From an uncultured Gemmatimonadaceae bacterium (GTDB taxonomy: Bacteria > Gemmatimonadota > Gemmatimonadetes > Gemmatimonadales > GWC2-71-9), in NCBI GenBank assembly GCA_964638035.1, contig CAZWXD010000015.1:12289-76288 (forward strand): a DNA stretch of 64,000 nucleotides. Reading direction: 5' to 3'. The notes beneath the pieces were generated by a model. That model saw nothing but the letters and a program-made list of their open reading frames with translations. It made no database searches and was not told the origin of the DNA. A program made the translations under genes and the position numbers. Of the stretch, positions 8,578-51,600 are shown piece after piece; within the stretch, counting starts at the first letter, position 1, and each line of letters opens with the position of its first letter.

Positions 8578-10014
8578 GTGGACTCCCGCACCGGTGAGAC
8601 GCGCCCTGCCCAGCACAAGCGCCTGATGGACCGCAACCCCTGGAAGACGCTCGCGTGCGTGGTGACCGCCGTGTTCATGGTCATCCTCGACACGACGGCC
8701 GTGAACGTGGCGTTTCCCACGCTGCAGCGGGAGTATGGCGCGTCGCTGCAGGCCTCCCAGTGGATCGTGAGCCTGTATGTGCTGGTGCTGGGCATCACCA
8801 CGCCGCTGGCGGGCTGGCTCGCCGACCGCTTCGGGCTCCGCCGCATGTTCCTGCTGGGCATCGTGCTCTTCACCACCGGCTCGGCGCTCTGTGGCCTGGC
8901 GCCGTCGCTGCCGTTCCTCATCGCGGCGCGCGCCATCCAGGCCATCGGCGGCGGGATCACCCAGCCAGCCGGAAGCGCCCTGCTCTTCCGGGCGTTCCCA
9001 CCGGGTGAGATCGGGCGCGCCTTCGGGGTCTTCGGCATGGCGCTCCTGGTGGGCCCCGCCCTCGGCCCCGTGCTGGGCGGCCTGCTGGTAGACATGGGCC
9101 ACTGGCGCTGGATCTTCTTCATCAATGTCCCGTTTGGCTGCGCCGCCTTCCTCGCGGGCCGGCGCTGGCTCGCCGAGTGGCACCGGCCGGAAACGCCGTC
9201 GCTCGACCGCCTGGGCCTGCTGCTCTCCACCATCGGGTTCGGTGCCATCCTCCTCGCGGCAGCCTCGGTGCGGGGCCACGGGCTCACCTCGCCGATGGTG
9301 ACCGGCACGTTCGCCGTCGGCATCGGCGCCCTCGTGACCCTCTGGATCGTGGAGCATCGCTCCACGGCACCGCTCTTCGACGTGGACCTGCTGCAGAACC
9401 CCGTCTTCCTCACCGCCAACCTGGTGGGCTACGTGGGCGTGGTGGGCCTCTTTGCCGCGCAGTTCCTGCTCCCGCTCTTCCTCGAGGCGATCCGGAACCT
9501 CTCGCCGGGACAGGTGGGCCTCGTCCTCCTGGCCCAGCCCGTTGCCGGCGCCATCGCGTCGCCCATCACCGGTCGGCTCTACGATCGCATCGGCCCGCGG
9601 ATCCTGGCGACCATCGGGTTCTTCCTCCTGGCCATCAGCACCTGGCAGCTGGTGCACCTCACAGCCACCAGCAGCCTCGCACACATCCGGTTCATCCTGG
9701 TGCTGCGGGGGCTGGCGTTCGGCATGACCATCCAGACCACGTTCACCACCGCACTCGGCACGGTCGGGCGTGACCGGGTGGCACGGGCCTCGGCGTTCGT
9801 GAGCGCCACGCGGTTCAGCATCCAGGCCGTGTCGATCGCGGTGCTGAGCGCGGTGGTGGGTGGGGGCCTTGCGGGCAGGTACACCCTGCCCGGGTTCGCC
9901 ACCGCCTATGCGGTGACCTTCGTGTTCAGCGTGGCGGCCTGCCTGCTCGCCATGCGCCTGCCGGGGTGGCCGGGCCGGTGGGCGGGTCGGGAAGGCATGC
10001 AGCCAACCTCCTGA
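8578..10014 (+). CDS. MFS transporter, DHA2 (EmrB/QacA-like, 14-TMS) family
   Basis: The motifs are VFMVILDTTAVNVAFPTL and GWLADRFGLRRMFLLG (motif A-like), with about 14 hydrophobic segments. The track ORF starts at the GTG at 8578. The ATG at 8626 (MDRNPWK) is an equally plausible start. Confidence 0.88.
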   Translation: MDSRTGETRPAQHKRLMDRNPWKTLACVVTAVFMVILDTTAVNVAFPTLQREYGASLQASQWIVSLYVLVLGITTPLAGWLADRFGLRRMFLLGIVLFTTGSALCGLAPSLPFLIAARAIQAIGGGITQPAGSALLFRAFPPGEIGRAFGVFGMALLVGPALGPVLGGLLVDMGHWRWIFFINVPFGCAAFLAGRRWLAEWHRPETPSLDRLGLLLSTIGFGAILLAAASVRGHGLTSPMVTGTFAVGIGALVTLWIVEHRSTAPLFDVDLLQNPVFLTANLVGYVGVVGLFAAQFLLPLFLEAIRNLSPGQVGLVLLAQPVAGAIASPITGRLYDRIGPRILATIGFFLLAISTWQLVHLTATSSLAHIRFILVLRGLAFGMTIQTTFTTALGTVGRDRVARASAFVSATRFSIQAVSIAVLSAVVGGGLAGRYTLPGFATAYAVTFVFSVAACLLAMRLPGWPGRWAGREGMQPTS

Positions 10015-10038
10015 CGCCATGACGCCTTGGCGTCGTGG
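10012..10038. repeat. Degenerate mini-copy of the 8-bp TGACGCC-unit palindrome
   Basis: TGACGCCA TGACGCCT TGGCGTCGTGG begins on the TGA stop of the MFS gene. It has two tandem octamers followed by the inverted unit. The unit is the same as in the arrays at 41996..42122 and 48957..49097. Confidence 0.4.
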
Positions 10039-10045
10039 AGCACCC

Positions 10046-13701: not shown

Positions 13702-14533
13702 AGGTGTAGCGACTCAGGGTCGCCGCACCGCGCGCTCCCTCGTCTGCCAGGAAAAGCGTGCGCGATCGCGCCAGGGCGATGCCCTCGGGCTGCGGGTGCC
13801 CGGTCAGCTTCGCGAGCTCGATCACCTGGCCGACCGGGTCAATCTCCAGCAGCATGGTGGGGCCGGACGACACCACGAGCAGGTGCCTCGAGGCGGGCTC
13901 CCATTCGATGGCACTGGGCCGGAACCGACTGGCCCCCGCCTGCTTCAGCGCGGCGGCCGACACCTGGATGGTGGCCGGCTCGGCGGGCCTGCCCGTCCTG
14001 GTATTCCAGCGGTGGATCACCACCCCCCCGCCGCCTCCGGTCTTGCATGGCAGGAGGAGGATGCCGTCGGGCAGGGCGACGAGTCCCTCGAACTCGCAGG
14101 CCCGGGCCAGGCCGGTGGTGATGCGCGTGAACGCGAGCGGTGTGGTGCTGGTGCGGGCGTCAAAACGATAGAGCACTGCCCGGCTCGTCATCAGCCACGC
14201 CGTGCTGTCCACAATGGCGAGCCCCTCGAAGTCGTCCTTGACGGAGCCTTCGAGTGCCGACCATGGTGTCACGACACCGGTGGCAGGGTCAATGCGCGAG
14301 AGGCGGCCCTGCTCGTCGTTGTGCGCCAGCAGCGCGTCGCCGTACCATGCGAGCCCCGACACCTCGCGAAGCGACTGGGATAGCGTGACGACGCGGTCGG
14401 CACGGGCGGGATAGCGGCACGTGCGGATCACCGAGGGATCCAGGCCCGGTGCCAGCGGTGCGGGGGCGCCGAGCGCCAGGATCGCGGCGACGGCGAGGCC
14501 CCTGCTGCGGGTTGGGGTGCGGCCGGGCGTCAG
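13691..14533 (-). CDS. SdiA-regulated/YjiK-like beta-propeller protein (exported)
   Basis: Repeated SGLAW / FEGLA / EGIAL blades are present, and [15 protein letters not shown] is a signal-like segment. The track ORF (to 14794) would overlap msrB by 265 nt. No ATG/GTG/TTG lies between the msrB stop and the signal peptide, so the true start is uncertain. I placed it at the CTG at 14533. Confidence 0.6.
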
Positions 14534-18143: not shown

Positions 18144-18216
18144 TGGAGCGGACCGGGATCGAACCGGCGACCCCCTGCTTGCAAAGCAGGTGCTCTCCCA
18201 GCTGAGCTACCGCCCC
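18144..18216 (-). tRNA. tRNA-Ala (anticodon UGC)
   Basis: The minus strand reads GGGGCGGTAGCTCAGCTGGGAGAGCACCTGCTTTGCAAGCAGGGGGTCGCCGGTTCGATCCCGGTCCGCTCCA. I folded the cloverleaf by hand. It has a 7-bp acceptor stem with the Ala-identity G3:U70 pair, the D-arm GCTC/GAGC, the anticodon loop TTTGCAA, and the T-arm GGTTCGATCC. CCA is not encoded. Confidence 0.92.
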
Positions 18217-38977: not shown

Positions 38978-38995
38978 CCGTCAGGAGGTACTGCG

Positions 38996-40543: not shown

Positions 40544-41059
40544 ATGGCTGACGAGCTCGAAGAGCTGTACCAGAGCACGTACACGGCGGTCGTTCGGTAC
40601 CTGTACCGCAAGGTCTGGGACGCCGACCGCGCGGAGGACCTGGCGCAGGAGGTGTTCGTGCGCCTGCTGCAGCACCGCCCGGAGAAGCCGCGATCCTGGA
40701 TCTTTGCTGTTGCCGCCAACCTGGCACGGGATGAGGCCAGGGCAGCGATCCGGCGCCGGCGGCACCTGACGTTGCTGAGCGCCGAGCCGTCCGCCCTGCC
40801 CTCGGCGCCGCTTGCCGCGGAAGACATGCTGGAGCACGATGAGCGGGCAGCAGAGGTGCAGGAAGCGCTGGACGCACTGACCCCGCGAGACCGCGAGGTG
40901 CTCCTGCTCTGGGACGCAGGGCTCAGCTATCCGGAGATTGCCGAACGGACGGGGCTCGCGGTCGGAGCGATTGGCACGACGCTGGCGCGGGCACGCCGGC
41001 GGCTGGTGGCCGCACACCATGCCCAGCACAGCACCGAGGCCGATGTCGCACATTCCTGA
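40544..41059 (+). CDS. ECF (group IV) sigma-70 factor
   Basis: The start is at the ATG at 40544 (MADELEELY). Region 2 is DRAEDLAQEVFVRLL. Region 4 is LTPRDREVLLLWDAGLSYPEIAERTGLAVGAIGTTLARARRRL. Confidence 0.9.
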   Translation: MADELEELYQSTYTAVVRYLYRKVWDADRAEDLAQEVFVRLLQHRPEKPRSWIFAVAANLARDEARAAIRRRRHLTLLSAEPSALPSAPLAAEDMLEHDERAAEVQEALDALTPRDREVLLLWDAGLSYPEIAERTGLAVGAIGTTLARARRRLVAAHHAQHSTEADVAHS

Positions 41060-41996
41060 GGACGAACTCCACGCCTACCTCGACCAGGCCCTGGGCCGGT
41101 CGCAGTGCGTGGTCATCGAGAGCCACCTGGCGAGTTGCGCCGACTGCCGCCGCGAACGCGATGCGATCGCCGCGCTGCGCGACCGGACGACGCTGCTGCT
41201 GGGCCAGGCAGCGCCGGCACGGCGCATCGCTCCCTCCTTCGAGGCGCTGCAGCGGCGCGCGGTGCATGCGCCGGTGTCGCGCCGGGCGCGGCTCCTCCGG
41301 CGGGGCATCATGGCCGCGAGCCTGGTTGGAGCCATCGGGATCGGCTACGCGCTCCGTTCCCTCGAGCCCGCGCCCGAGGCGGCCACGGCCCAGCAGCCGG
41401 TCCTGCCGGTGCCGATGCCCGTGGCCGCGCCGGACCGGGCGGGTGGGCAACCCGACGTGCACCAGGTGGCGGAGCATCGGTCGAGCCCGGCCCGGGCAAG
41501 GGTACCCGCCGGGATCGCCGTGGACCGGAACCCCGCGGTTCCGCCGGCCCCCGTCGTTGCTGCCATCACGCCGCCTGCCTCGATCGAACTGTCCACGGAC
41601 ACCCTGCCGCAGGAAGAAACCGCCAGCCTCGTGGGCCTCTGGCGCACGGTGCCGTGGGATGCCGCGGAACAGGCGGCCGGGCGCGAACCGTCGCGGCTGA
41701 TCGGGGTGCCGGTCGAGCAGGTCCAGGTCCAGCCGAGCAGCCGGGAAGGTGGCAAGCCGGTCACGGTGGTGGCACAGCGGCTCTCATCGGGTGAGGTCAT
41801 CCAGACCATCGAGGGCCCGGCAGCCGATGTCACCCAGCTCCTCTCCCGGAGCGGTGACGGTGGGCTCGACTCCGCCGGCCGCTCGGCGCAGGCGGTCCGT
41901 TCCGGCGACCGGCTGATCGTGGTGACAGGCCAGCTCCCCTCGGACTCGCTGCGCGCGATGGCGCGGCGGGTGAATGCGGGGATGCGGGTGAGGTAG
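41043..41996 (+). CDS. Anti-sigma factor, zf-HC2 (ZAS) type, single-pass membrane protein
   Basis: The start is at the ATG at 41043, overlapping the sigma gene by 17 nt. The HxxxCxxC motif is in ESHLASCADCRRE, and the TM is GIMAASLVGAIGIGYAL. A Pro/Ala-rich periplasmic part follows. Confidence 0.8.
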   Translation: MSHIPEDELHAYLDQALGRSQCVVIESHLASCADCRRERDAIAALRDRTTLLLGQAAPARRIAPSFEALQRRAVHAPVSRRARLLRRGIMAASLVGAIGIGYALRSLEPAPEAATAQQPVLPVPMPVAAPDRAGGQPDVHQVAEHRSSPARARVPAGIAVDRNPAVPPAPVVAAITPPASIELSTDTLPQEETASLVGLWRTVPWDAAEQAAGREPSRLIGVPVEQVQVQPSSREGGKPVTVVAQRLSSGEVIQTIEGPAADVTQLLSRSGDGGLDSAGRSAQAVRSGDRLIVVTGQLPSDSLRAMARRVNAGMRVR

Positions 41997-42122
41997 GGCG
42001 TCAGGGCGTCAGGACGTCAGGACGTCAGGGAGAAAAAGGGCCACCGCGGTTTGCGATGGCCCTTTCGCTTTCCCTGACGCCCTGACGCCCTGACGCCCTG
42101 ACGTCCTGACGTCCTGACGCCC
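41996..42122. repeat. Nested palindrome built from tandem 8-bp units (RCGTCAGG)4 ... (CCTGACGY)6
   Basis: The + strand reads GCGTCAGG GCGTCAGG ACGTCAGG ACGTCAGG, then a central hairpin, then CCTGACGC x3, CCTGACGT x2 and CCTGACGC x1. It fills the whole convergent gap from the anti-sigma TAG to the actF stop. Confidence 0.9.
42035..42065. terminator. Bidirectional intrinsic-terminator-like hairpin
   Basis: AAAGGGCCA-ccgcggtttgcga-TGGCCCTTT forms a 9-bp stem. It is flanked by an A-run on the left and a T-run on the right, so either strand gets a U-tail. It lies between convergent genes. Confidence 0.7.
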
Positions 42123-43468
42123 TACTTCTCCAGGTCGGCCTCGTGCACGAAGTCCTTCTCGGTGTCTTCGTGATCGTAGTGCTCCACCTCGTGGTGGTGG
42201 ACCTCACGGCTCAGCGTGTTCTCCGCCAGCCGCGGTGAGATCATGGGCCAGGTGCGGCCGAAGAGCGCATGGGTGAGGAGAAAGAGGCCCAGGAACAGCG
42301 CGGTGGGCCCGACCTCGGGCACCCCGAAGCGCGGCCCGCTCTCTGCCGTGATCGACGGCACGATCATCAGGTAGCGCTCCAGCCAGAGCGCCGTGAGGCT
42401 CACCAGGGCCACGGCGGGCAGGATGACCCGGTTCTTCTTGGGTGCCACGCCCAGCAGCACGATGAACGGAATGAAGAAGAGGCCGGTGAGGACCGCCTGC
42501 GCGACCGGGATCCAGGGGCCCCAGAGCCGCGCGTAGACGAAGCCGGTCTCCTCGGGGAGGTTGGCATACCAGATGATCTGGAACTGGGCCCACATGAGGT
42601 AGGCCCAGAAGACCGAGAACCCGAAGCAGAGCTTGCCCAGGTCATGGCGCTGCTTGCCCGAGATGAGGTCGCTGACACCGAGCAGCTTGCCGTCGAAGAT
42701 CATGAGCACGGCCAGCAGCATGTAGCCGCCCAGGAACGATCCCATGAAGAACCAGCCGCCCAGCAGGTTGGAGTACCAGTGGGGCTGGAGCGCCATCATC
42801 CCGTCGAACGCGACCAGGGTGAGGACAATGGCGTAGAGCACGGCATACACCGGCGACAGGCGCCGGAGCTTGCCGTAGATCCGCTCCTGTGCGCCCTCGG
42901 AGTTGTCGTAGCCGCGCGCCCGGCGCTCGAAGAGCGCCCGCCGGCCGCCGGTGGCCGCCCCCTGCGCCGCAGCCACGTCGGGGATGAGGTCGGTGCGGAC
43001 CAGGCGCCAGCCGATCCAGTAGAGGAGCGACAGCCCCACGAAGAGCCGGCCGAACATGAAGCCCCGGCTGAGCCACACCGCCTTGCCATGCTGGAGCGAG
43101 TGCAGCTGCTCATGCATGTGACCGTAGATGTGGTCGTAGCCCACCGTGAAGATGAGCACCAGGCCCACGAGCGAGACCGGCGCGAACCAGATCGCCGCCT
43201 CCGCGAAGCGGATGACCACGCCCGACCACCGGGCGTTCACGATCTTGTCCACCGCCGCCACCGCCACGCTGCCGGCGCAGAGGCCGGTGAAGAAGACCCA
43301 GTTGACGTGGAAGAGGTGCCATGCGCGCGGCGCATTCTCGCCGCGGATGGTCATGGCAAACAGGATGAGGCCAAGGACCGCGAGGCCCATGCCCACCCCG
43401 AGCCGGGTCTCGTAGCGGCCCGAGAGGCCGGCTTCGACCAGGCGCTGCCGGATGTTCCGCCCTGGCAT
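42122..43468 (-). CDS. actF: Alternative complex III subunit ActF (NrfD-like membrane subunit)
   Basis: 448-aa polytopic protein that looks paralogous to ActC and is the last gene of the act operon. Its ATG shares one nucleotide (43468) with the actE stop codon (TGATG). Confidence 0.8.
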   Translation of the reverse strand: MPGRNIRQRLVEAGLSGRYETRLGVGMGLAVLGLILFAMTIRGENAPRAWHLFHVNWVFFTGLCAGSVAVAAVDKIVNARWSGVVIRFAEAAIWFAPVSLVGLVLIFTVGYDHIYGHMHEQLHSLQHGKAVWLSRGFMFGRLFVGLSLLYWIGWRLVRTDLIPDVAAAQGAATGGRRALFERRARGYDNSEGAQERIYGKLRRLSPVYAVLYAIVLTLVAFDGMMALQPHWYSNLLGGWFFMGSFLGGYMLLAVLMIFDGKLLGVSDLISGKQRHDLGKLCFGFSVFWAYLMWAQFQIIWYANLPEETGFVYARLWGPWIPVAQAVLTGLFFIPFIVLLGVAPKKNRVILPAVALVSLTALWLERYLMIVPSITAESGPRFGVPEVGPTALFLGLFLLTHALFGRTWPMISPRLAENTLSREVHHHEVEHYDHEDTEKDFVHEADLEK

Positions 43469-45960: not shown

Positions 45961-48939
45961 CTAGTGCTCCTCCGCCGCCGGCGCATGGGCCGCGGGCTCC
46001 CGCTGCAGGACCTTGGCCAGGTAGGTGATGGCCGGCCGCACGTTGATGTCCTCGAGGATGTGGTACCCCCGATGGTCGCCACTCCGCTCCACCACGGCGC
46101 TCCCCGGGTCGTGGAGGTCGCCGAAGGTGATGGCGCCGGACCCGCAGGCCTGCTGGCAGGCGGTCCGCACGTCACCATCCCGGAGCTCGCGATCCTCCAG
46201 CCGGGCCCGGTGCTCGGTGTTCCGGATGCGCTGCACGCAGAAGGTGCACTTCTCCATGACCCCGCGCGCCCGCACCACGACCTCGGGGTTGAGCTGCAGG
46301 TTGAGCGGCTCGACGAACACCTTCTTCGAGTAGTGCAGCCAGTTGAAGTAGCGCACCTTGTAGGGGCAGTTGTTGGCGCAGTACCGGGTGCCCACGCAGC
46401 GGTTGTACACCTGGCCGTTGAGCCCGTCCGGGGTGTGGTACGCCGCATACACGGGGCACACCGTCTCGCAGGGCGCGTTGTCGCAGTGCTGGCACAGCAT
46501 GGGGACGAACCGCGCCTCGACCGGCTCCCCGTCCGTGCCCCCCTCCCAGTACCGCTCCACCCGCATCCAGGTCATCTCGCGCCCGCGGAGGATCTCGTGC
46601 TCACCCACCCACGGGATGTTGTTCTCGGCGTAGCACGCCGTGATGCAGGCCGAGCACCCGGTGCAGCGCGACAGGTCCACCGCCATGCCCCACATGGCAT
46701 GCTCGCCCTTGTAGTCGCCCAGCCGCCGCCCCTGCCCGTCCTCGCGGCCCACGGTCTCCTCGCGCCAGCCCTGGATCGCCTCCAGCTCGCGCGGCGTGTT
46801 GATCTCATGCGGCGGATGCCCGGCGGCCCGGGCCGACTGCAGGAGCGTCATGCCCTGGAGGGCGTGCGCTACCGGCATCGCCTGGGCAATGCCGCGCCCG
46901 AGCTGCCGGGTGTGGCCCTCGGACTTGGCCACCTTCTGGTACTCGCGGGTGCGCTCGACCTGCACCTTCACCGAGGCGTACTGCAGGAAGGTGCCGGTGG
47001 TGGGGCCGAGGAGGTCGAGGTAGTTCACCCCGCGACCCTTCGCATAGTCGCCGAGCTCGGTGTGGCCCAGGCCCAGTGGCATCGCCACCACCCCGGGCTT
47101 GAGGCCGGGATAGATGTAGGCGGGCGCGGACACGCTGCCGTGCGCCGACGTCAGCTTGACCACCTCGCCCTCGCGCACGTTGAGCTGGGCGGCGGTGTCA
47201 GGGTGCATCTCCACCCACGATTGCCAGCTGATCTTCGTGACCGGGTCGGGCACCTCGGCCAGCCAGGGCCGGTTGGCGCCGCTCCCATCACTGTAGTGCG
47301 AGCTGGCGTAGGGCAGGAGCGTGAACTCACCGGGCCCCTCGAAGGCCGGGACCGCCGGGTTGACCGACGCGTTGGCGACGGACACGACGTAGGACGGCGC
47401 CTCCGCGTACTCACCACCCCGCTGCAGGGCATCACGCCAGGCGGCCTCGCCGCCACCGCGCGCCTGCCACACCGTGCGAACGTGCTCCTCCCAGCTGGCG
47501 GCGTTGAACTTCGCCAGCGGGCCGCCAACCTTCTGCGCCACCTTGAGGAGGACATCCCCGGTGGCCATGGTGTTGAACACCGGCGTCATCACCGGCTGCA
47601 TCAGGCCCCAGACGCCCGCGCGGGGATTCAGGTCATCCCAGCGCTCCAGCGCATGGTGGCCCGGCAGGAGCAGGTCGCACTGCGCCGCCGTCTCGTCGAA
47701 GTAGAGGGTCGTCGAGACCTTGAAGGGCACCTTGGCCAGGGCCTCGACGAAGCGGTTCTGCTGCGGCAGGGTGTAGGCCGGGTTCGACTCATGCACCAGG
47801 AGGACCTGGATGTCGCCCCGTCCCATGGCCCCGGCCAGCTGGATGACCGCCCCAAGGCCGTCGCCGTGGTCAAGGTCGGCGCCGAACCGGACCGTCCGGC
47901 CGATGTTGCCGGCCGCCTGGTTGAGCAGGTTCACCGCGGCGCAGAGCTCCACGGCGTTGGCATACTGGGCGCCGATGCCGCCGGCCACTGCCAGGCCAGG
48001 CGACGCCGCCGCGAACTCCTTCGCGATGCGGACCAGCACCTCGGCGGGGACGCCGGACGCCGCCGCCGCCGACTCGATGGTGGCTGCAGCGTTGCCGGTC
48101 GGGGCGATGGCGTTGGCCAGGGCGAGCGCCACCAGCGCCTCGGAGCCGGGGTTCACCGCATGCCAGTCGTCGGCGTTCAGGCCGGTGAGCGAGGCGCGAG
48201 GACCGAAGTAGACGAACCGGGCCGGCTGGCGCCCCGGGCTGAACCCGTGCGCCTCGGCAAAGCCCCGCTCGTACTCGGCCGACGAACCCCAGGTCTCGAG
48301 AAAGTCCGCGCCAAACGAGATGATGTACTTCGCCTGGCTGAAGTCGCAGGCAGGAACCTCGTCGCGCCCGAAGACCCGCTGGTTGGCCTCGCGCACCGGC
48401 TCCAGGTCGAACGGACGGTACCGCACCACCCGGCCACCCTGCGCCGCCATGACGTCACCCAGGAAGGTGTCGAACGTCCCCCGGCCGGCCCCCGAGAGAG
48501 CGGCCACCCTTCCACCCGCCGCCCCGAGCTTCGTGGCGAGCAGCGCGACGGCGTCATCCCACGAGATGTCCTTCCAGGCGCCTGCCTCCTTCACCATCGG
48601 CCCCTTCACCCGGCCCGGGTTGTACAGGCCCTGCAGGGCTGCCTGGCCCCGGGAGCAGAGGGCGCCGCGGTTCACCGGGTGTTCCGGGTTCCCGTCGAGC
48701 TTGATGGCCCGTCCCTCGCGCGTCTTCACGTGCACGCCGCAACCCGCGCTGCACTCGGTGCAGGTGCTGGCGTAGTACGTGGGAATGCCCGGCACCTGGT
48801 CCTCGGACTGCACCAGGTAGGGGATCAGCTTCTCCACTCGCTCCGTGCTGCAACCGGACAGCGCCGCGGCACCGGCACTGGTCGTGCCGAGCACCGTGAG
48901 GAACCGGCGGCGGGAGACGGGCGAGGTTTCGTCGGACAT
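45961..48939 (-). CDS. actB: Alternative complex III subunit ActB (fused molybdopterin-oxidoreductase-like and 4Fe-4S ferredoxin-like domains)
   Basis: 992 aa with the Tat signal SRRRFLTVLGTTSAGAAALSGC. The cluster motifs are CTGCSACITAC, CQHCDNAPCETVCP, CVGTRYCANNCP and CTFCVQR. Confidence 0.9.
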   Translation of the reverse strand: MSDETSPVSRRRFLTVLGTTSAGAAALSGCSTERVEKLIPYLVQSEDQVPGIPTYYASTCTECSAGCGVHVKTREGRAIKLDGNPEHPVNRGALCSRGQAALQGLYNPGRVKGPMVKEAGAWKDISWDDAVALLATKLGAAGGRVAALSGAGRGTFDTFLGDVMAAQGGRVVRYRPFDLEPVREANQRVFGRDEVPACDFSQAKYIISFGADFLETWGSSAEYERGFAEAHGFSPGRQPARFVYFGPRASLTGLNADDWHAVNPGSEALVALALANAIAPTGNAAATIESAAAASGVPAEVLVRIAKEFAAASPGLAVAGGIGAQYANAVELCAAVNLLNQAAGNIGRTVRFGADLDHGDGLGAVIQLAGAMGRGDIQVLLVHESNPAYTLPQQNRFVEALAKVPFKVSTTLYFDETAAQCDLLLPGHHALERWDDLNPRAGVWGLMQPVMTPVFNTMATGDVLLKVAQKVGGPLAKFNAASWEEHVRTVWQARGGGEAAWRDALQRGGEYAEAPSYVVSVANASVNPAVPAFEGPGEFTLLPYASSHYSDGSGANRPWLAEVPDPVTKISWQSWVEMHPDTAAQLNVREGEVVKLTSAHGSVSAPAYIYPGLKPGVVAMPLGLGHTELGDYAKGRGVNYLDLLGPTTGTFLQYASVKVQVERTREYQKVAKSEGHTRQLGRGIAQAMPVAHALQGMTLLQSARAAGHPPHEINTPRELEAIQGWREETVGREDGQGRRLGDYKGEHAMWGMAVDLSRCTGCSACITACYAENNIPWVGEHEILRGREMTWMRVERYWEGGTDGEPVEARFVPMLCQHCDNAPCETVCPVYAAYHTPDGLNGQVYNRCVGTRYCANNCPYKVRYFNWLHYSKKVFVEPLNLQLNPEVVVRARGVMEKCTFCVQRIRNTEHRARLEDRELRDGDVRTACQQACGSGAITFGDLHDPGSAVVERSGDHRGYHILEDINVRPAITYLAKVLQREPAAHAPAAEEH

Positions 48940-48956
48940 GTGGGACTCCGAGTTCA

Positions 48957-49097
48957 GGACGTCAAGGCGTCAAGGCGTCAAGGCGTCAAGGCGTCAAGGC
49001 GTCAAGGCGTCAAGGCGTCACGATACTGGGTTCTCGTACGGACGCAAACCGCGCCCCCTCTTCGCCCTGACGTCCTGACGTCCTGACGTCCTGACGC
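48957..49097. repeat. Second copy of the 8-bp-unit palindromic element, in the actA-actB intercistronic spacer
   Basis: The + strand reads GGACGTCA then (AGGCGTCA)x7 (48957..49020). A 45-bp spacer containing CGCAAACCGCG (49043..49053) follows. Then come (CCTGACGT)x3 and CCTGACGC (49066..49097), ending at the actA stop codon. Confidence 0.9.
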
Positions 49098-49688
49098 CTA
49101 GTGATGGCAGATCGTGCAATCGCGCTTGACGCCACGGGCGAGGTGGCAGTTGATGCACCACCCCATGTTGTTGACGTTGTTGACCTTGAACACCTGGGGC
49201 ATGCGGGCCACGTCGCCGTGACAGGCGGCGCAGGCGGTCGGGCCCATCGCCTTCACGTGGTTCTGGTGCGGGAAGTGAACGTGGCGGGCAACGAAGTGCA
49301 CCCGGACCCACTCGATCGGCGCCTTCTTGCCCCACGCGTCCCGCACCTTGCGGATCTCGTTCTGGTTGGCACTGTCCGAGCCGCTCACCACCAGGTGGCA
49401 CCCCATGCAGGTCTGCATCGAGGGGACGCCGGGCTCGGTGGAGACGGAGGCGGAGTAATGGCAGTATTGGCAGGAGATCTGGTACTGACCGGCGTGGATG
49501 TCGTGCCGGAAGAAGACCGGTTGGCGTGGGCCGGGCAACGTCGCCGTATCGCCGGCAGCGAGGACCACGCTGGTGGGCGGCTTGGGAGGGCCGGCCTGCT
49601 GGGCACTCGAGGGACGGTCAAGGACAACGGCGAGCGTCACGACCGCGGCACCCGCTCCGATGGCCAACCACGCCGACTTCCGCATCAT
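49098..49688 (-). CDS. actA: Alternative complex III subunit ActA (penta-haem cytochrome c)
   Basis: The start is at the ATG at 49688 (MMRKSAWLAIGAGAAVVTLAVVL anchor). Five CxxCH motifs are present: CQYCH, CMGCH, CAACH, CINCH and CTICH. Confidence 0.9.
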   Translation of the reverse strand: MMRKSAWLAIGAGAAVVTLAVVLDRPSSAQQAGPPKPPTSVVLAAGDTATLPGPRQPVFFRHDIHAGQYQISCQYCHYSASVSTEPGVPSMQTCMGCHLVVSGSDSANQNEIRKVRDAWGKKAPIEWVRVHFVARHVHFPHQNHVKAMGPTACAACHGDVARMPQVFKVNNVNNMGWCINCHLARGVKRDCTICHH

Positions 49689-49894: not shown

Positions 49895-50677
49895 CTACGT
49901 ATCCCCGCCCGGGCCCCCGGATCCCTCCCGGAGCATGCCCTGGCGACGGAGGTAATGCCGGACCTCGATGCCCATCGCCCGCAGGAGCTTTGCCTCCCGC
50001 TGGTCGAGCCCCGCGCGGAAGACAACTTCCCGGAAGGAGCGAAGGACGTTGTCGCGCTGCCGGGTCTTGAAGAACTCGATGGCGTCGAGTGTGCGCTCCC
50101 AGTCGGCGAAGAGCAGCTCCTGTTCCTCCATGGTCACCGCCGGGGCCTGCCGCCGCGGGCGCTTGAAGGGTTGCCGGTTGCCACCCTGGGCCACCCAGAG
50201 TTCGTACGCCATCACGGCAATCGCCTGCGCCAGGTTGAGCGAGGTGTAGCTCGGGTCGGTGGCGATGGTGATCAGCGTCTGGCAGGCGTCCAGTTCATCA
50301 TTGGTGAGCCCGTGGGCCTCCCGTCCCGCCACCAGGGCCACCCGCCCCTCGCTTGCGTGCGACAGCAGGTCATCGGCCGCGTCCCGGGGCCGCAGGATCC
50401 GCCGCTTCGCTGCCCGTTCCCGGCCGGTCAGCACGCCCGCGTAGACGCAGTCGGCCAGCGCAGCGGCCAGGGTGTCGAAGGTGCGGATGCGGCTGATGAA
50501 CTCCCCGGTATTGTGCGCCACGCCCTCGATGCGGTAGGCATCGAGTTCCACTTCCGGTTGCACCACGCGCATCTCGGGGATGCCGAAGTTGCGGCAGATC
50601 CGCACCGCCGAACCCACATTGACGATGTCCTGCGGGGCGACGAGGACGAGGGTGACACGGGTCAATGGGGACGTCAT
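49895..50677 (-). CDS. SpoU/TrmH-family RNA 2'-O-methyltransferase (TrmJ-like group)
   Basis: 260 aa with the motifs VLVAPQDIVNVGSAVRICRNFG, ALVAGREAHGLTNDEL and SLNLAQAIAVMAYE (SPOUT knot motifs). Confidence 0.8.
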   Translation of the reverse strand: MTSPLTRVTLVLVAPQDIVNVGSAVRICRNFGIPEMRVVQPEVELDAYRIEGVAHNTGEFISRIRTFDTLAAALADCVYAGVLTGRERAAKRRILRPRDAADDLLSHASEGRVALVAGREAHGLTNDELDACQTLITIATDPSYTSLNLAQAIAVMAYELWVAQGGNRQPFKRPRRQAPAVTMEEQELLFADWERTLDAIEFFKTRQRDNVLRSFREVVFRAGLDQREAKLLRAMGIEVRHYLRRQGMLREGSGGPGGDT

Positions 50678-50701
50678 GGCGCCTTGACGTCATGACGCCT
50701 G
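50670..50701. repeat. Degenerate octamer-unit echo spanning a gene junction
   Basis: GACGTCAT GGCGCCTT GACGTCAT GACGCCTG has an 8-nt register, with units related to GACGTCAA/GGCGTCAA of the 48957 array. It covers the dehydrogenase stop and the methyltransferase start (ATGA at 50674..50677). Confidence 0.3.
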
Positions 50702-51600
50702 ATCTCCACCCCCGCCTCCTGCTCCAGCAGGCGGATCGCCTCCAGGTAGTCCGCGCTTTCGCCCAGGACCTCGCGGGCCCCACCGAACAGGTGCCAGGCC
50801 TCACGGGTGAGGTCGGCAGGCACGCCCTGCTGGTCCATGAGTCCCACCGCGATGCCCACGTCCTTGTGCAGCAACGCCAGCCGGAAGGTGTTGGGAAAGA
50901 GGCCGGTGAGCACCCGGTCGGGGATGAGGGACTCGCTGACGAACGACCGCCCGCTCGACGTATTGAGGACCTCGAGGGCCGCCGTCGCCGGGATGCCCGC
51001 CTTCACCAGCGCCGCCAGTCCCTCACCCACGGCCAGGATGTTCACCGCCAGCAGGGCATTGTTGACCGCCTTCATGGCGTGCCCGGTGCCGACCGGCCCC
51101 ATGTGCACGATGCGCGAACCGAAGGCCGCGAGCACGGGACGCACACGTGCCAGCAACGCAGCATCGCCGCCCACCATGACCGTCAGCGTGCCCGCCTCCG
51201 CGCCGCTGGTCCCGCCACTCACCGGGGCGTCGAGGAAGCCGGCGCCGCCCGCCTCCACCTTGCCGGCAATGCGCACACTGGTACCGGGATCGCCCGAGGT
51301 GCAATCCACCAGCACGGCGCCGGGCGCAAGCCCCGCCAGGACCCCGTCAGGGCCGCCGAGGAGCTTCTCGACCTCGGCCGACGTGGGGAGGCAGGTGATC
51401 ACGACACCGGCGCCAGCAACCGCCTGGGCCGGCGACGCCGCCGCACTGGCGCCTGCGGCCGGGGCAAGGGCCTCGGCCACACTGCGGGTCCTGTTCCACA
51501 CCGTCAGCGGGAACTCACGAGCGATTCGGGCGGCCATGGGCCGCCCGATCGCTCCGAGGCCGAGGAAGGCGACCTGCTCAGTCGTCGCCGGCATCATCAC
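50674..51600 (-). CDS. NAD(P)-dependent beta-hydroxyacid dehydrogenase (3-hydroxyisobutyrate dehydrogenase family)
   Basis: 308 aa with the motifs VAFLGLGAIGRPMAARIA (GxGxxG), DAPVSGG and AMKAVNNAL. Confidence 0.85.
   Translation of the reverse strand: MMMPATTEQVAFLGLGAIGRPMAARIAREFPLTVWNRTRSVAEALAPAAGASAAASPAQAVAGAGVVITCLPTSAEVEKLLGGPDGVLAGLAPGAVLVDCTSGDPGTSVRIAGKVEAGGAGFLDAPVSGGTSGAEAGTLTVMVGGDAALLARVRPVLAAFGSRIVHMGPVGTGHAMKAVNNALLAVNILAVGEGLAALVKAGIPATAALEVLNTSSGRSFVSESLIPDRVLTGLFPNTFRLALLHKDVGIAVGLMDQQGVPADLTREAWHLFGGAREVLGESADYLEAIRLLEQEAGVEIRRHDVKAP

Follow-up and report, generated by a model that had tools for sequence, protein, structure and literature searches.

Paired octamer arrays around a terminator-type hairpin between converging operons: a probable copy of a dispersed, slippage-prone repeat family

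The subject here is a short spacer at which two operons converge, positions 41996-42122 of the window, by which is meant the whole 64,000-nucleotide stretch of contig CAZWXD010000015.1 that was analysed. On the plus strand an extracytoplasmic function (ECF) sigma factor gene and its zf-HC2 anti-sigma partner run towards it, the latter an open reading frame (ORF) from 40938 to 41996 (PF13490, by sequence reading and Pfam) that closes with TAG at 41994-41996. From the other side, on the minus strand, come genes for ActD (PF11821), cytochrome c and an NrfD-like protein of 448 amino acids, a row consistent with the order actA to actF, and from its place at the close of that row the 448-residue protein (gene 42122-43468; stop CTA on the plus strand at 42122-42124) is read as the ActF of alternative complex III. 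What occupies the space between the two stops? A single element, here called element 1, fills it, beginning at the anti-sigma TAG and stopping one base short of the ActF TAG: two arrays of tandem octamers in inverted orientation flank a core of 43 nt. The left, or G-type, arm (41996-42029, plus strand) is (GGGCGTCA)2(GGACGTCA)2GG, read from 41996 as GGGCGTCA GGGCGTCA GGACGTCA GGACGTCA GG and equivalently, starting at 41998, as (GCGTCAGG)2(ACGTCAGG)2; its first base is the final G of the anti-sigma stop, and the GTAG so formed pairs with CTAC at 42122-42125 as the base of one big hairpin. The right, or C-type, arm (42073-42120, plus strand) is (CCTGACGC)3(CCTGACGT)2(CCTGACGC)1 and has TGA in all three frames. 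It does not, as the initial annotation had it, end exactly at the actF stop but one base earlier, a single C at 42121 separating the two.

The arrays themselves, paired around a hairpin between converging genes as that annotation described them, are real: they are read directly at 41996-42120, both are detected by Tandem Repeats Finder (scores 58 and 90), and the complementarity of the arms is up to 100% across 28 nt. Shuffling agrees, with 21 two-adjacent-unit matches in the window at two mismatches or fewer where 0.44 are expected, a count reached by 0 of 100 shuffles, and TGACGNNNTGACG, i.e. TGACG at 8-nt spacing, has 20 matches there where 0.2 are expected. A coding repeat was rejected, in agreement with the earlier view of this DNA as neither coding nor a clustered regularly interspaced short palindromic repeat (CRISPR) locus: the unit is of 8 nt, the arrays lie outside the ORFs of high third-position GC (GC3), and the C-type arm has TGA in each of the three frames. 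A CRISPR array was also rejected, as it needs repeats of 24-48 nt and unique spacers of similar size and here 8-nt units abut directly.

The core (42030-42072) holds a bidirectional hairpin of the intrinsic-terminator type, its stem at 42035-42047 and 42053-42065 and its loop at 42048-42052; on either strand there is an A run upstream of it and there are T-rich runs downstream. The hairpin had been given as a 9-bp stem around 13 nt, and the two 9-mers, AAAGGGCCA at 42035-42043 and TGGCCCTTT at 42057-42065, are present at that distance, but an inverted-repeat search extends the stem to 13/13 positions, AAAGGGCCA(CCGC) against (GCGA)TGGCCCTTT, at 92% complementarity, leaving a loop of 5 nt. Folded alone on the act strand the core forms a 14-bp stem of -26.2 kcal/mol (z -5.5) followed by UUUUUCUCCC (UUUUU), and on the opposite strand a stem of -22.4 kcal/mol (z -3.6) followed by UUUCGCUUUC. 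A GC-rich stem of 13-14 bp, a 5-nt loop and a U run, all downstream of a stop, are what is looked for in a Rho-independent terminator, and it is likely that the core works as one. Ordinary bidirectional terminators of this kind are like the hairpin at 42035-42065 in having a GC-rich stem, an A run upstream, T runs downstream and a position between two stops; unlike element 1, they are without a periodic lower stem of 30-50 bp built of a genome-wide repeat. With the arms included, the spacer folds from stop to stop on both strands, into the long nested stem that had been foreseen for either transcript (as RNA -111.9 kcal/mol, z -11.7, on the plus strand and -117.3 kcal/mol, z -14.4, on the minus strand; as single-stranded DNA -63.2 kcal/mol, z -10.9).

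A second full element, element 2 (48956-49097), lies 7 kb away inside the act operon, between actA and actB. Its long arm (48956-49021, plus strand), AGGACGTCA then (AGGCGTCA)7, is 6 nt upstream, in the minus-strand sense, of the ribosome-binding site of actB (GGAG, 48946-48949, with the start codon at 48937-48939, both on the minus strand), and its short arm (49066-49097, plus strand), (CCTGACGT)3(CCTGACGC), abuts the TAG stop of actA (CTA, 49098-49100). The intervening core of 44 nt (49022-49065) lacks both a T run and any significant hairpin of its own (z -0.15), though the element as a whole folds (z -6.2 sense, z -4.9 antisense); a structured core in element 1 and an unstructured one in element 2 is as expected if termination is tolerated between operons and not within one. 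Both elements have the same plan, a G-type arm (GRCGTCAR)n, a variable centre and a reverse-complement C-type arm (YTGACGYC)m. The centres have something in common also, as the 11-mer CGCGGTTTGCG at 42045-42055 in the core of element 1 is present as its reverse complement at 49043-49053 in that of element 2, and it occurs exactly twice in the window, one per core and in opposite orientations. A core-to-core local alignment this good came up in 4 of 5000 shuffles and in 33 of 20000 45-mers drawn at random from the window (p about 1e-3). At its outer ends element 2 has CTAG on one side and no tag on the other.

All three stop codons that adjoin the arrays (41993-41996 and 42122-42125 in element 1, 49098-49101 in element 2) are TAG, in a window whose stop usage is TGA 33, TAG 15 and TAA 1. 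Are the stops supplied by the element? That was rejected, TAG being 31% of the window's stops and the same TAG being present in a relative that has no array; the TAG stops beside the arrays are probably ancestral and not repeat-supplied, because orthologues have identical terminal codons. Phase variation of promoter spacing by the TTGACG-containing arm upstream of actB was rejected too, as there is no -10 at a usable distance and no promoter match.

Elsewhere in the window, single copies of CCTGACGY outside arrays are not over-represented (11, with 9.2 expected), and with no excess of single octamers both an uptake motif of the DNA uptake sequence or uptake signal sequence type and a polar motif like Chi or the FtsK-orienting polar sequences were excluded. 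Rfam gives a single tRNA in the window and nothing else. The one place where unit-like sequence again fills a convergent spacer is a mini hairpin at 10010-10040 (plus strand), CCTGACGC CATGACGCC-TT-GGCGTCGTGG, which is the whole 31-nt spacer between an MFS transporter gene, whose stop codon is the TGA of the first unit CCTGACGC, and an ORF of 841 amino acids. Its stem, GACGCC-TT-GGCGTC, folds at -19.7 kcal/mol (z -3.3), and its polarity is opposite to that of the full elements, the C-type sequence coming first; it may be what remains of an element, or the seed of one. Within coding DNA, a unit-like 16-nt tandem duplication, GACGTCATGRCGCCTT x1.9, at 50665-50700 spans the overlapping stop and start (ATGA) of the minus-strand genes 49895-50677 and 50674-51600.

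How many such arrays does the genome have? The window and about 11 kb of added flank hold two full elements, or one per ~37 kb. When contigs of eight sludge, wastewater and soil metagenomes were aligned to the two window loci, about 100 contigs per sample matched the arrays in the four deepest samples, many of them ending in arrays, and across the eight metagenomes the summed depth in array bins was ~17-170 times the depth of the unique flanks. The listed array-bearing contigs had flank depth in samples where that depth was ~20, 40, 10 and 10, and contigs that keep to flank depth from sample to sample must belong to the same genome. Further joints of G-type and C-type arms were recovered over short loops (ACATCCTTGAAT; GGTAGCT; AGAAC, from the same locus as GGGAAGTTCT; ACCGGGTC; GGAGTA; GAATCTAGCCTTGATA), giving at least 5-6 additional paired loci that are plain long hairpins with loops of 5-16 nt. 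In both window elements and all recovered joints the G-type arm comes first, whichever strand is read. The number of arrays in the genome is probably between tens and more than 100, and the idea that the element might be unique to the window is disposed of by element 2 and by the array contigs of the sludge metagenomes. Nor is an artefact of assembly at issue, as element 1 is base-for-base identical in an independently assembled Joint Genome Institute (JGI) metagenome contig, its arms are found in more than 10 runs, and its architecture is kept in orthologues. Every Logan short-read contig with an identical ActF gene breaks off 17-29 nt inside the array, which thus behaves as a repeat.

The arrays are also unstable, as had been guessed from the unequal numbers of units in the two arms of element 1. 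Across element 2 the JGI contig L124 is identical to the window except that it has exactly one TGACGCCT unit (8 nt) fewer. Over 1411 nt the Logan contig L004 matches the window except at 2 positions, each a T-to-C switch of unit type in the array, and 1383 nt of flanking gene are identical. Gain or loss of units and switching of unit type between near-identical strains, by slipped-strand mispairing or conversion, is therefore shown. The locus occurs in metagenome runs from activated sludge, bioreactors and wastewater and in some from soil, and the named ActF homologues, at 63-71% identity, belong to metagenome-assembled genomes of Gemmatimonadales or Gemmatimonadota; going by these, the host is probably an uncultured member of the Gemmatimonadota living in activated sludge. 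The 64-kb window and ~11 kb of extra flank encode no transposase and no Y1 (RAYT) domain.

The convergence of the act operon on the ECF-sigma/anti-sigma operon is conserved in gene order in relatives, probably Gemmatimonadota, whose ActF is 71-80% identical, and the same spacer can so be followed across lineages. In L120 (ActF 80%) it is TAG-(ACGTGAGG)(GCGTGAGG)(ACGTGAAG)-hairpin-(CTTCACGT)2(CTTCACGC)(CTTCACGA)-CTA, in which all 7 units have changed together, the unit centre being GTGA where the window has GTCA and the partner arm having TCAC for TGAC. The spacer of L117 (77%) starts GTGGGACT GTGGGGTG GTGGGGT and is then cut by a contig break, that of L123 (73%) has GGCGGGGA units, that of L121/L122 (72%) has CYTRACG units of period 7 in the right arm and a 14-nt doublet on the opposite side, and that of L118 (71%) has degenerate GGCGGCAA / GGAAGTCA units. 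Each armed spacer has its own, distinct GC-rich central hairpin with T runs, and the armed spacers fold from stop to stop with z from -5.4 to -10.9. L119 (74%) is without an array; its spacer has instead a different palindromic repeat (9588-9786), long, reading GTCATCCTGAGCGCAGCGAAGGATC ... GATTCCTCGCTGCGCTCGGAATGAC, that adjoins a terminator hairpin of its own. What is constant at the level of the clade is the architecture, in which periodic complementary arms extend from a terminator hairpin to the stops, while the sequence of the unit and its period, 8 or 7, turn over. Element 2 has a shorter, degenerate counterpart with GACGGTCG units in L117 and is absent from L118 (32-nt spacer) and L119 (11 nt). 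In L118 another convergent spacer, that between a cupredoxin gene and a PAP2 gene, is filled at 14445-14510 by inverted heptamer arrays, (GTGAACR)4 - loop - (GTTCACC)3 (-51.8 kcal/mol, z -9.8); the orthologous spacer in the window, 38978-38995, has 18 nt.

Outside the clade the unit is common, and no paired form is among the matches listed. A scan for three successive CYTGACGY over 185,579 species genomes gave at least 112 loci (L005-L116), and the matches listed, in Streptomyces, Kitasatospora, Acidimicrobiia, Paraburkholderia, Sorangium and others, are arrays of 3-13 units at the 3' ends of genes, always single and never paired among those 112. Among the 128 loci compared, arrays on both strands are present only in this organism's own loci, L001 and L124. 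In at least 42 of the 112 listed loci a high-GC3 ORF of at least 100 amino acids ends on the TGA of unit 1 or 2, and neighbouring units in L005-L116 are often variants that also contain TGA. On that count the octamer is widespread as a stop-codon-containing slippage unit, and it is the paired, multi-copy form that distinguishes the window's organism. Viral contigs gave two single arrays only and no phage link; gapped-pattern scans of metagenome contigs for the paired form gave 0 matches, and these scans also missed the JGI contig that carries the element.

Two further features of the region may be recorded. JGI contigs of the same sample end within genes at about 9456 and 28906 of the window, with clustered single-nucleotide polymorphisms near the breaks, and the 19-kb stretch between, which has a tRNA (18144-18216), a 1039-residue AAA_16 protein and a slightly lower GC content, may be strain-variable. 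Just past the left end of the window, at 11653-12355 of L125, are 700 nt with no called gene, between mgtE and a small ORF.

Is the family without precedent, as the initial annotation, which did not recognise it, left the reader to suppose? Close described analogues exist. Short tandemly repeated repetitive (STRR) heptamers were reportedly first described in Calothrix and Anabaena. Such cyanobacterial heptamers, named in PMC2670836 and PMC4046671, resemble the window family as dispersed intergenic arrays of a 7-nt unit whose copy number varies with the strain, some of them within operons (pecE-pecF), with no established function; they differ as heptamers with AT-richer units in cyanobacteria, and in that inverted pairs are few in Nostoc (PMC4692102). 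Another relative in kind is the TAACTGA repeat of Beggiatoaceae (PMC4679880). The closest described case is the inverted GGGAATC pairs of Xanthomonas. There, ~185 arrays of the heptamer per genome, mostly intergenic and near stops, include 70-75 convergent opposite-strand pairs; the number of units varies, and from species to species both position and type are kept (Rehm et al. 2015; PMC4692102). The likeness is extensive: a short G-rich unit repeated from 2 to more than 10 times, ~100-200 dispersed arrays mostly in intergenic DNA near stops, variable unit number, many opposite-strand pairs with the G-type arm first and capable of forming a stem-loop, conservation of position and of type (single or pair), and no explained function. 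Many dispersed and mainly intergenic copies, convergent pairs, variable units and occupation of orthologous spacers (L117, L118, L120, L121, L123) are all found in the family studied here. The sequence, however, is the octamer GRCGTCAR (7 nt in some relatives) and not the 7-nt GGGNATC, the phylum differs, the potential for G-quadruplexes (G4) is inconsistent, the arms of the window element enclose a terminator hairpin and reach both stops, and in the window's clade the unit turns over between lineages with matched changes on both arms.

In Geobacter metallireducens, classes 1-3 of paired sites (24, 21 and 8 opposite-strand pairs of tandem octa- or heptanucleotides) have been read as binding sites of global regulators (Aklujkar et al. 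2009; PMC2700814). They too have 3-5 tandem units of 7-8 nt per site, in opposite-strand pairs at variable distance, tens of pairs per genome, and they are intergenic, including a case between proB and proA in an operon, and species-specific (PMC2700814). The units, compared by description only, are different (GTTGCTYN, TCTCCGTS, MTYCTGA), and the proposals made for them, IHF/HU or regulator sites with some serving as targets of insertion sequences (IS), come with no described terminator core or contact with stops. A more distant comparison is with repetitive extragenic palindromes (REP) and the bacterial interspersed mosaic elements (BIME) that they compose, of which GTAG- and CGTC-tagged forms are known, the GTAG end being able to supply the TAG stop of a flanking ORF (Di Nocera et al. 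2013; PMC3733652). These have hundreds of extragenic palindromic copies between convergent or co-directional genes, with head-to-head dimers that fold into larger structures and with proposed roles in termination and mRNA stabilisation (PMC3733652). The REP unit, though, is a single imperfect palindrome of 20-40 bp linked to a REP-associated tyrosine transposase (RAYT), and here the arms are arrays of 8-mers, the GTAG/CTAC of element 1 consists of conserved terminal codons, and element 2 has CTAG at one end only. By sequence, then, the window family falls outside the definition of the Xanthomonas, Geobacter, STRR, Beggiatoaceae and REP/BIME families alike; in kind, it clearly belongs with the paired arrays of Xanthomonas and Geobacter.

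How should the 127 bp be understood? The reading that we somewhat favour is that they are one copy of a dispersed family of paired short tandem repeats evolving by slippage, in which the arms here lengthen the stem of a bidirectional intrinsic terminator, with a role at the level of RNA. The parts of this do not stand equally firm. That there is a dispersed, slippage-prone family of paired arrays is very likely. That the centre of element 1 is a Rho-independent terminator common to the act operon and the converging ECF-sigma/anti-sigma operon, with arms that extend its stem to both stops, is on balance probable. A role of the arms in RNA is possible and rather doubtful. On this reading, most transcripts would stop at the central hairpin and its T run before the distal arm is transcribed, and the occasional transcript reading through would gain both arms and so form a near-perfect stem of ~30-50 bp, which would be a barrier to 3'-to-5' exonucleases, would likely be a substrate for RNase III, and would limit antisense transcription into the converging gene. 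REP elements act as processing or stability points in operons of Escherichia coli. Element 2, within an operon and with no terminator core, might similarly be a point of processing or stability between actA and actB. The complementarity of the arms may be maintained by selection for pairing, by intra-palindrome repair, or by both.

Several points weigh against this. Transcripts that terminate at the core would be without the distal arm, in which case the arms might play no part in RNA whatever. Co-variation of arms does not require selection: repair templated within the palindrome could produce it, as could replacement by whichever repeat variant is current in the lineage. Similarity of arms within a locus (0.62-0.88) is only moderately above that between lineages (0.36-0.78). 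One relative, L119, has no arrays at the site of element 1. The estimate of copy number comes from summed contig depths in which related organisms may be included, and gene context is known for two full elements only. A simple consensus terminator scan gave no listing at the core of element 1, probably due to the stem being extended into the A/T runs so that too few T remain in the tail, and the assignment as a terminator rests in consequence on the reading of the sequence and on the folds.

Might the arrays have no function beyond that of a terminator that was there before them? Units of 7-8 nt would then expand by slippage in tolerant non-coding DNA, mainly 3' of genes, as a neutral or selfish by-product, and ectopic and intra-palindrome conversion would homogenise them. 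The gain, loss and switching of units between near-identical strains is just what this expects, as are arrays that exactly fill coding-free space from stop to stop or to a ribosome-binding site, a period of 8 in some lineages and 7 in others, and, among the matches listed, the single arrays that this unit forms at the 3' ends of genes across many unrelated high-GC phyla; for heptamers, slippage that the size of the unit favours has already been put forward (PMC4692102). What it accommodates poorly is the persistence of the paired layout in the same spacer across lineages with ActF 71-80% identical, both arms having changed together, and the strict G-arm-first polarity with near-perfect complementarity, which slippage on its own would not be expected to give; moreover, with no excess of the octamer beyond the arrays, it is hard to see where seeds would come from. 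It is, in our estimate, unlikely.

A different possibility is non-autonomous mobile DNA, of the REP/REPIN type or that of MITEs (miniature inverted-repeat transposable elements), with octamer arms as ends recognised by a transposase elsewhere in the genome, e.g., a RAYT or Y1 enzyme of the IS200-IS605 type. High copy number, an extragenic position between convergent or co-directional genes and the inverted-pair architecture all fit, element 2 is missing in two relatives, CGTC, the other REP tag, is in every unit, and the 11-mer exact in both cores in opposite orientation (p about 1e-3) looks as if a composite had been copied. The GTAG...CTAC at the outer ends of element 1 supplies or overlaps TAG stops, as described for GTAG REPs (PMC3733652), but in orthologues that GTAG belongs to conserved C-terminal codons. 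The repeat unit is moreover an 8-mer array and not a palindrome of 20-40 bp; the loops or cores differ between copies, where a mobile unit would carry its interior along; and the 64-kb window with its ~11 kb of flank has no transposase or Y1 domain. Of what defines a MITE (terminal inverted repeats, target-site duplication and a related autonomous IS), the arms are inverted, no consistent target-site duplication accompanies element 2, the 'TA' next to element 1 is palindromic and so uninformative, and no IS was seen. Mobility is on this evidence improbable.

A bolder proposal, to which we give equally little credence, is that of a selected system across the Gemmatimonadota clade, in which a dedicated sequence-specific factor, be it a repeat-binding or repeat-propagating protein or an RNA-guided process, would keep a lineage-specific 'word' of 7-8 nt identical at ~100 loci and in both arms. 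The super-hairpins would then be fail-safe insulators and processing points, those that run from stop to stop destroying or blocking read-through between converging genes and those in operons setting the points of processing.

Binding at the level of DNA is less probable still. Gyrase or IHF, as for E. coli BIMEs, or a 'global regulator' as proposed for Geobacter metallireducens, could act where converging transcription builds up supercoiling, and the location between converging operons, the strong potential for a DNA cruciform and the opposite-strand pairs at variable distance, as in Geobacter classes 1-3 (PMC2700814), would suit such sites. Direct repeats spaced by 8 bp are nonetheless out of phase with the DNA helix, the units differ between close lineages so that a protein would need to co-evolve with them, element 2 is inside an operon and not between converging genes, and for every such family the binding is putative. 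As for G4 repeats, with the G-type arm after each stop folding as DNA or in the 3' untranslated region, Xanthomonas and Nostoc heptamers do form quadruplexes in vitro and have the same G-arm-first polarity and near-stop position (PMC4692102), the inner arm of element 1 on the act strand, GGGCGTCAGGGCGTCAGGGCGTCAGGG, is a canonical (G3N5)3G3, and the arms of L123 and L117 are strongly G-tract-rich, but that act-strand arm is the only one of four in the window with a run of four G3 tracts (none in element 2, L118 or L120), half of the units are GGACGTCA, with GG only, and a perfectly complementary C-type arm nearby favours the hairpin, so that the idea is scarcely credible.

Dispersed arrays of 7-8-nt units, in STRR, Xanthomonas and Geobacter, have been known for decades without an accepted function. 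The element described here adds no new kind to these; as an example of paired arrays it is clean and informative about evolution, and the phenomenon is now found in another phylum and with an octamer unit. For those who work with this organism the arrays have practical consequences, as each copy is a break point in its short-read assemblies, and strains could be marked by their differing numbers of units. For the family at large, an anatomy in which a probable bidirectional terminator has the paired arms for its outer stem, as far as both stops, gives a testable hypothesis, either insulation against read-through or protection of 3' ends, and the orthologous spacers, which have kept the architecture through a turnover of the unit on both arms, are material with which selection for pairing may be separated from concerted neutral evolution.

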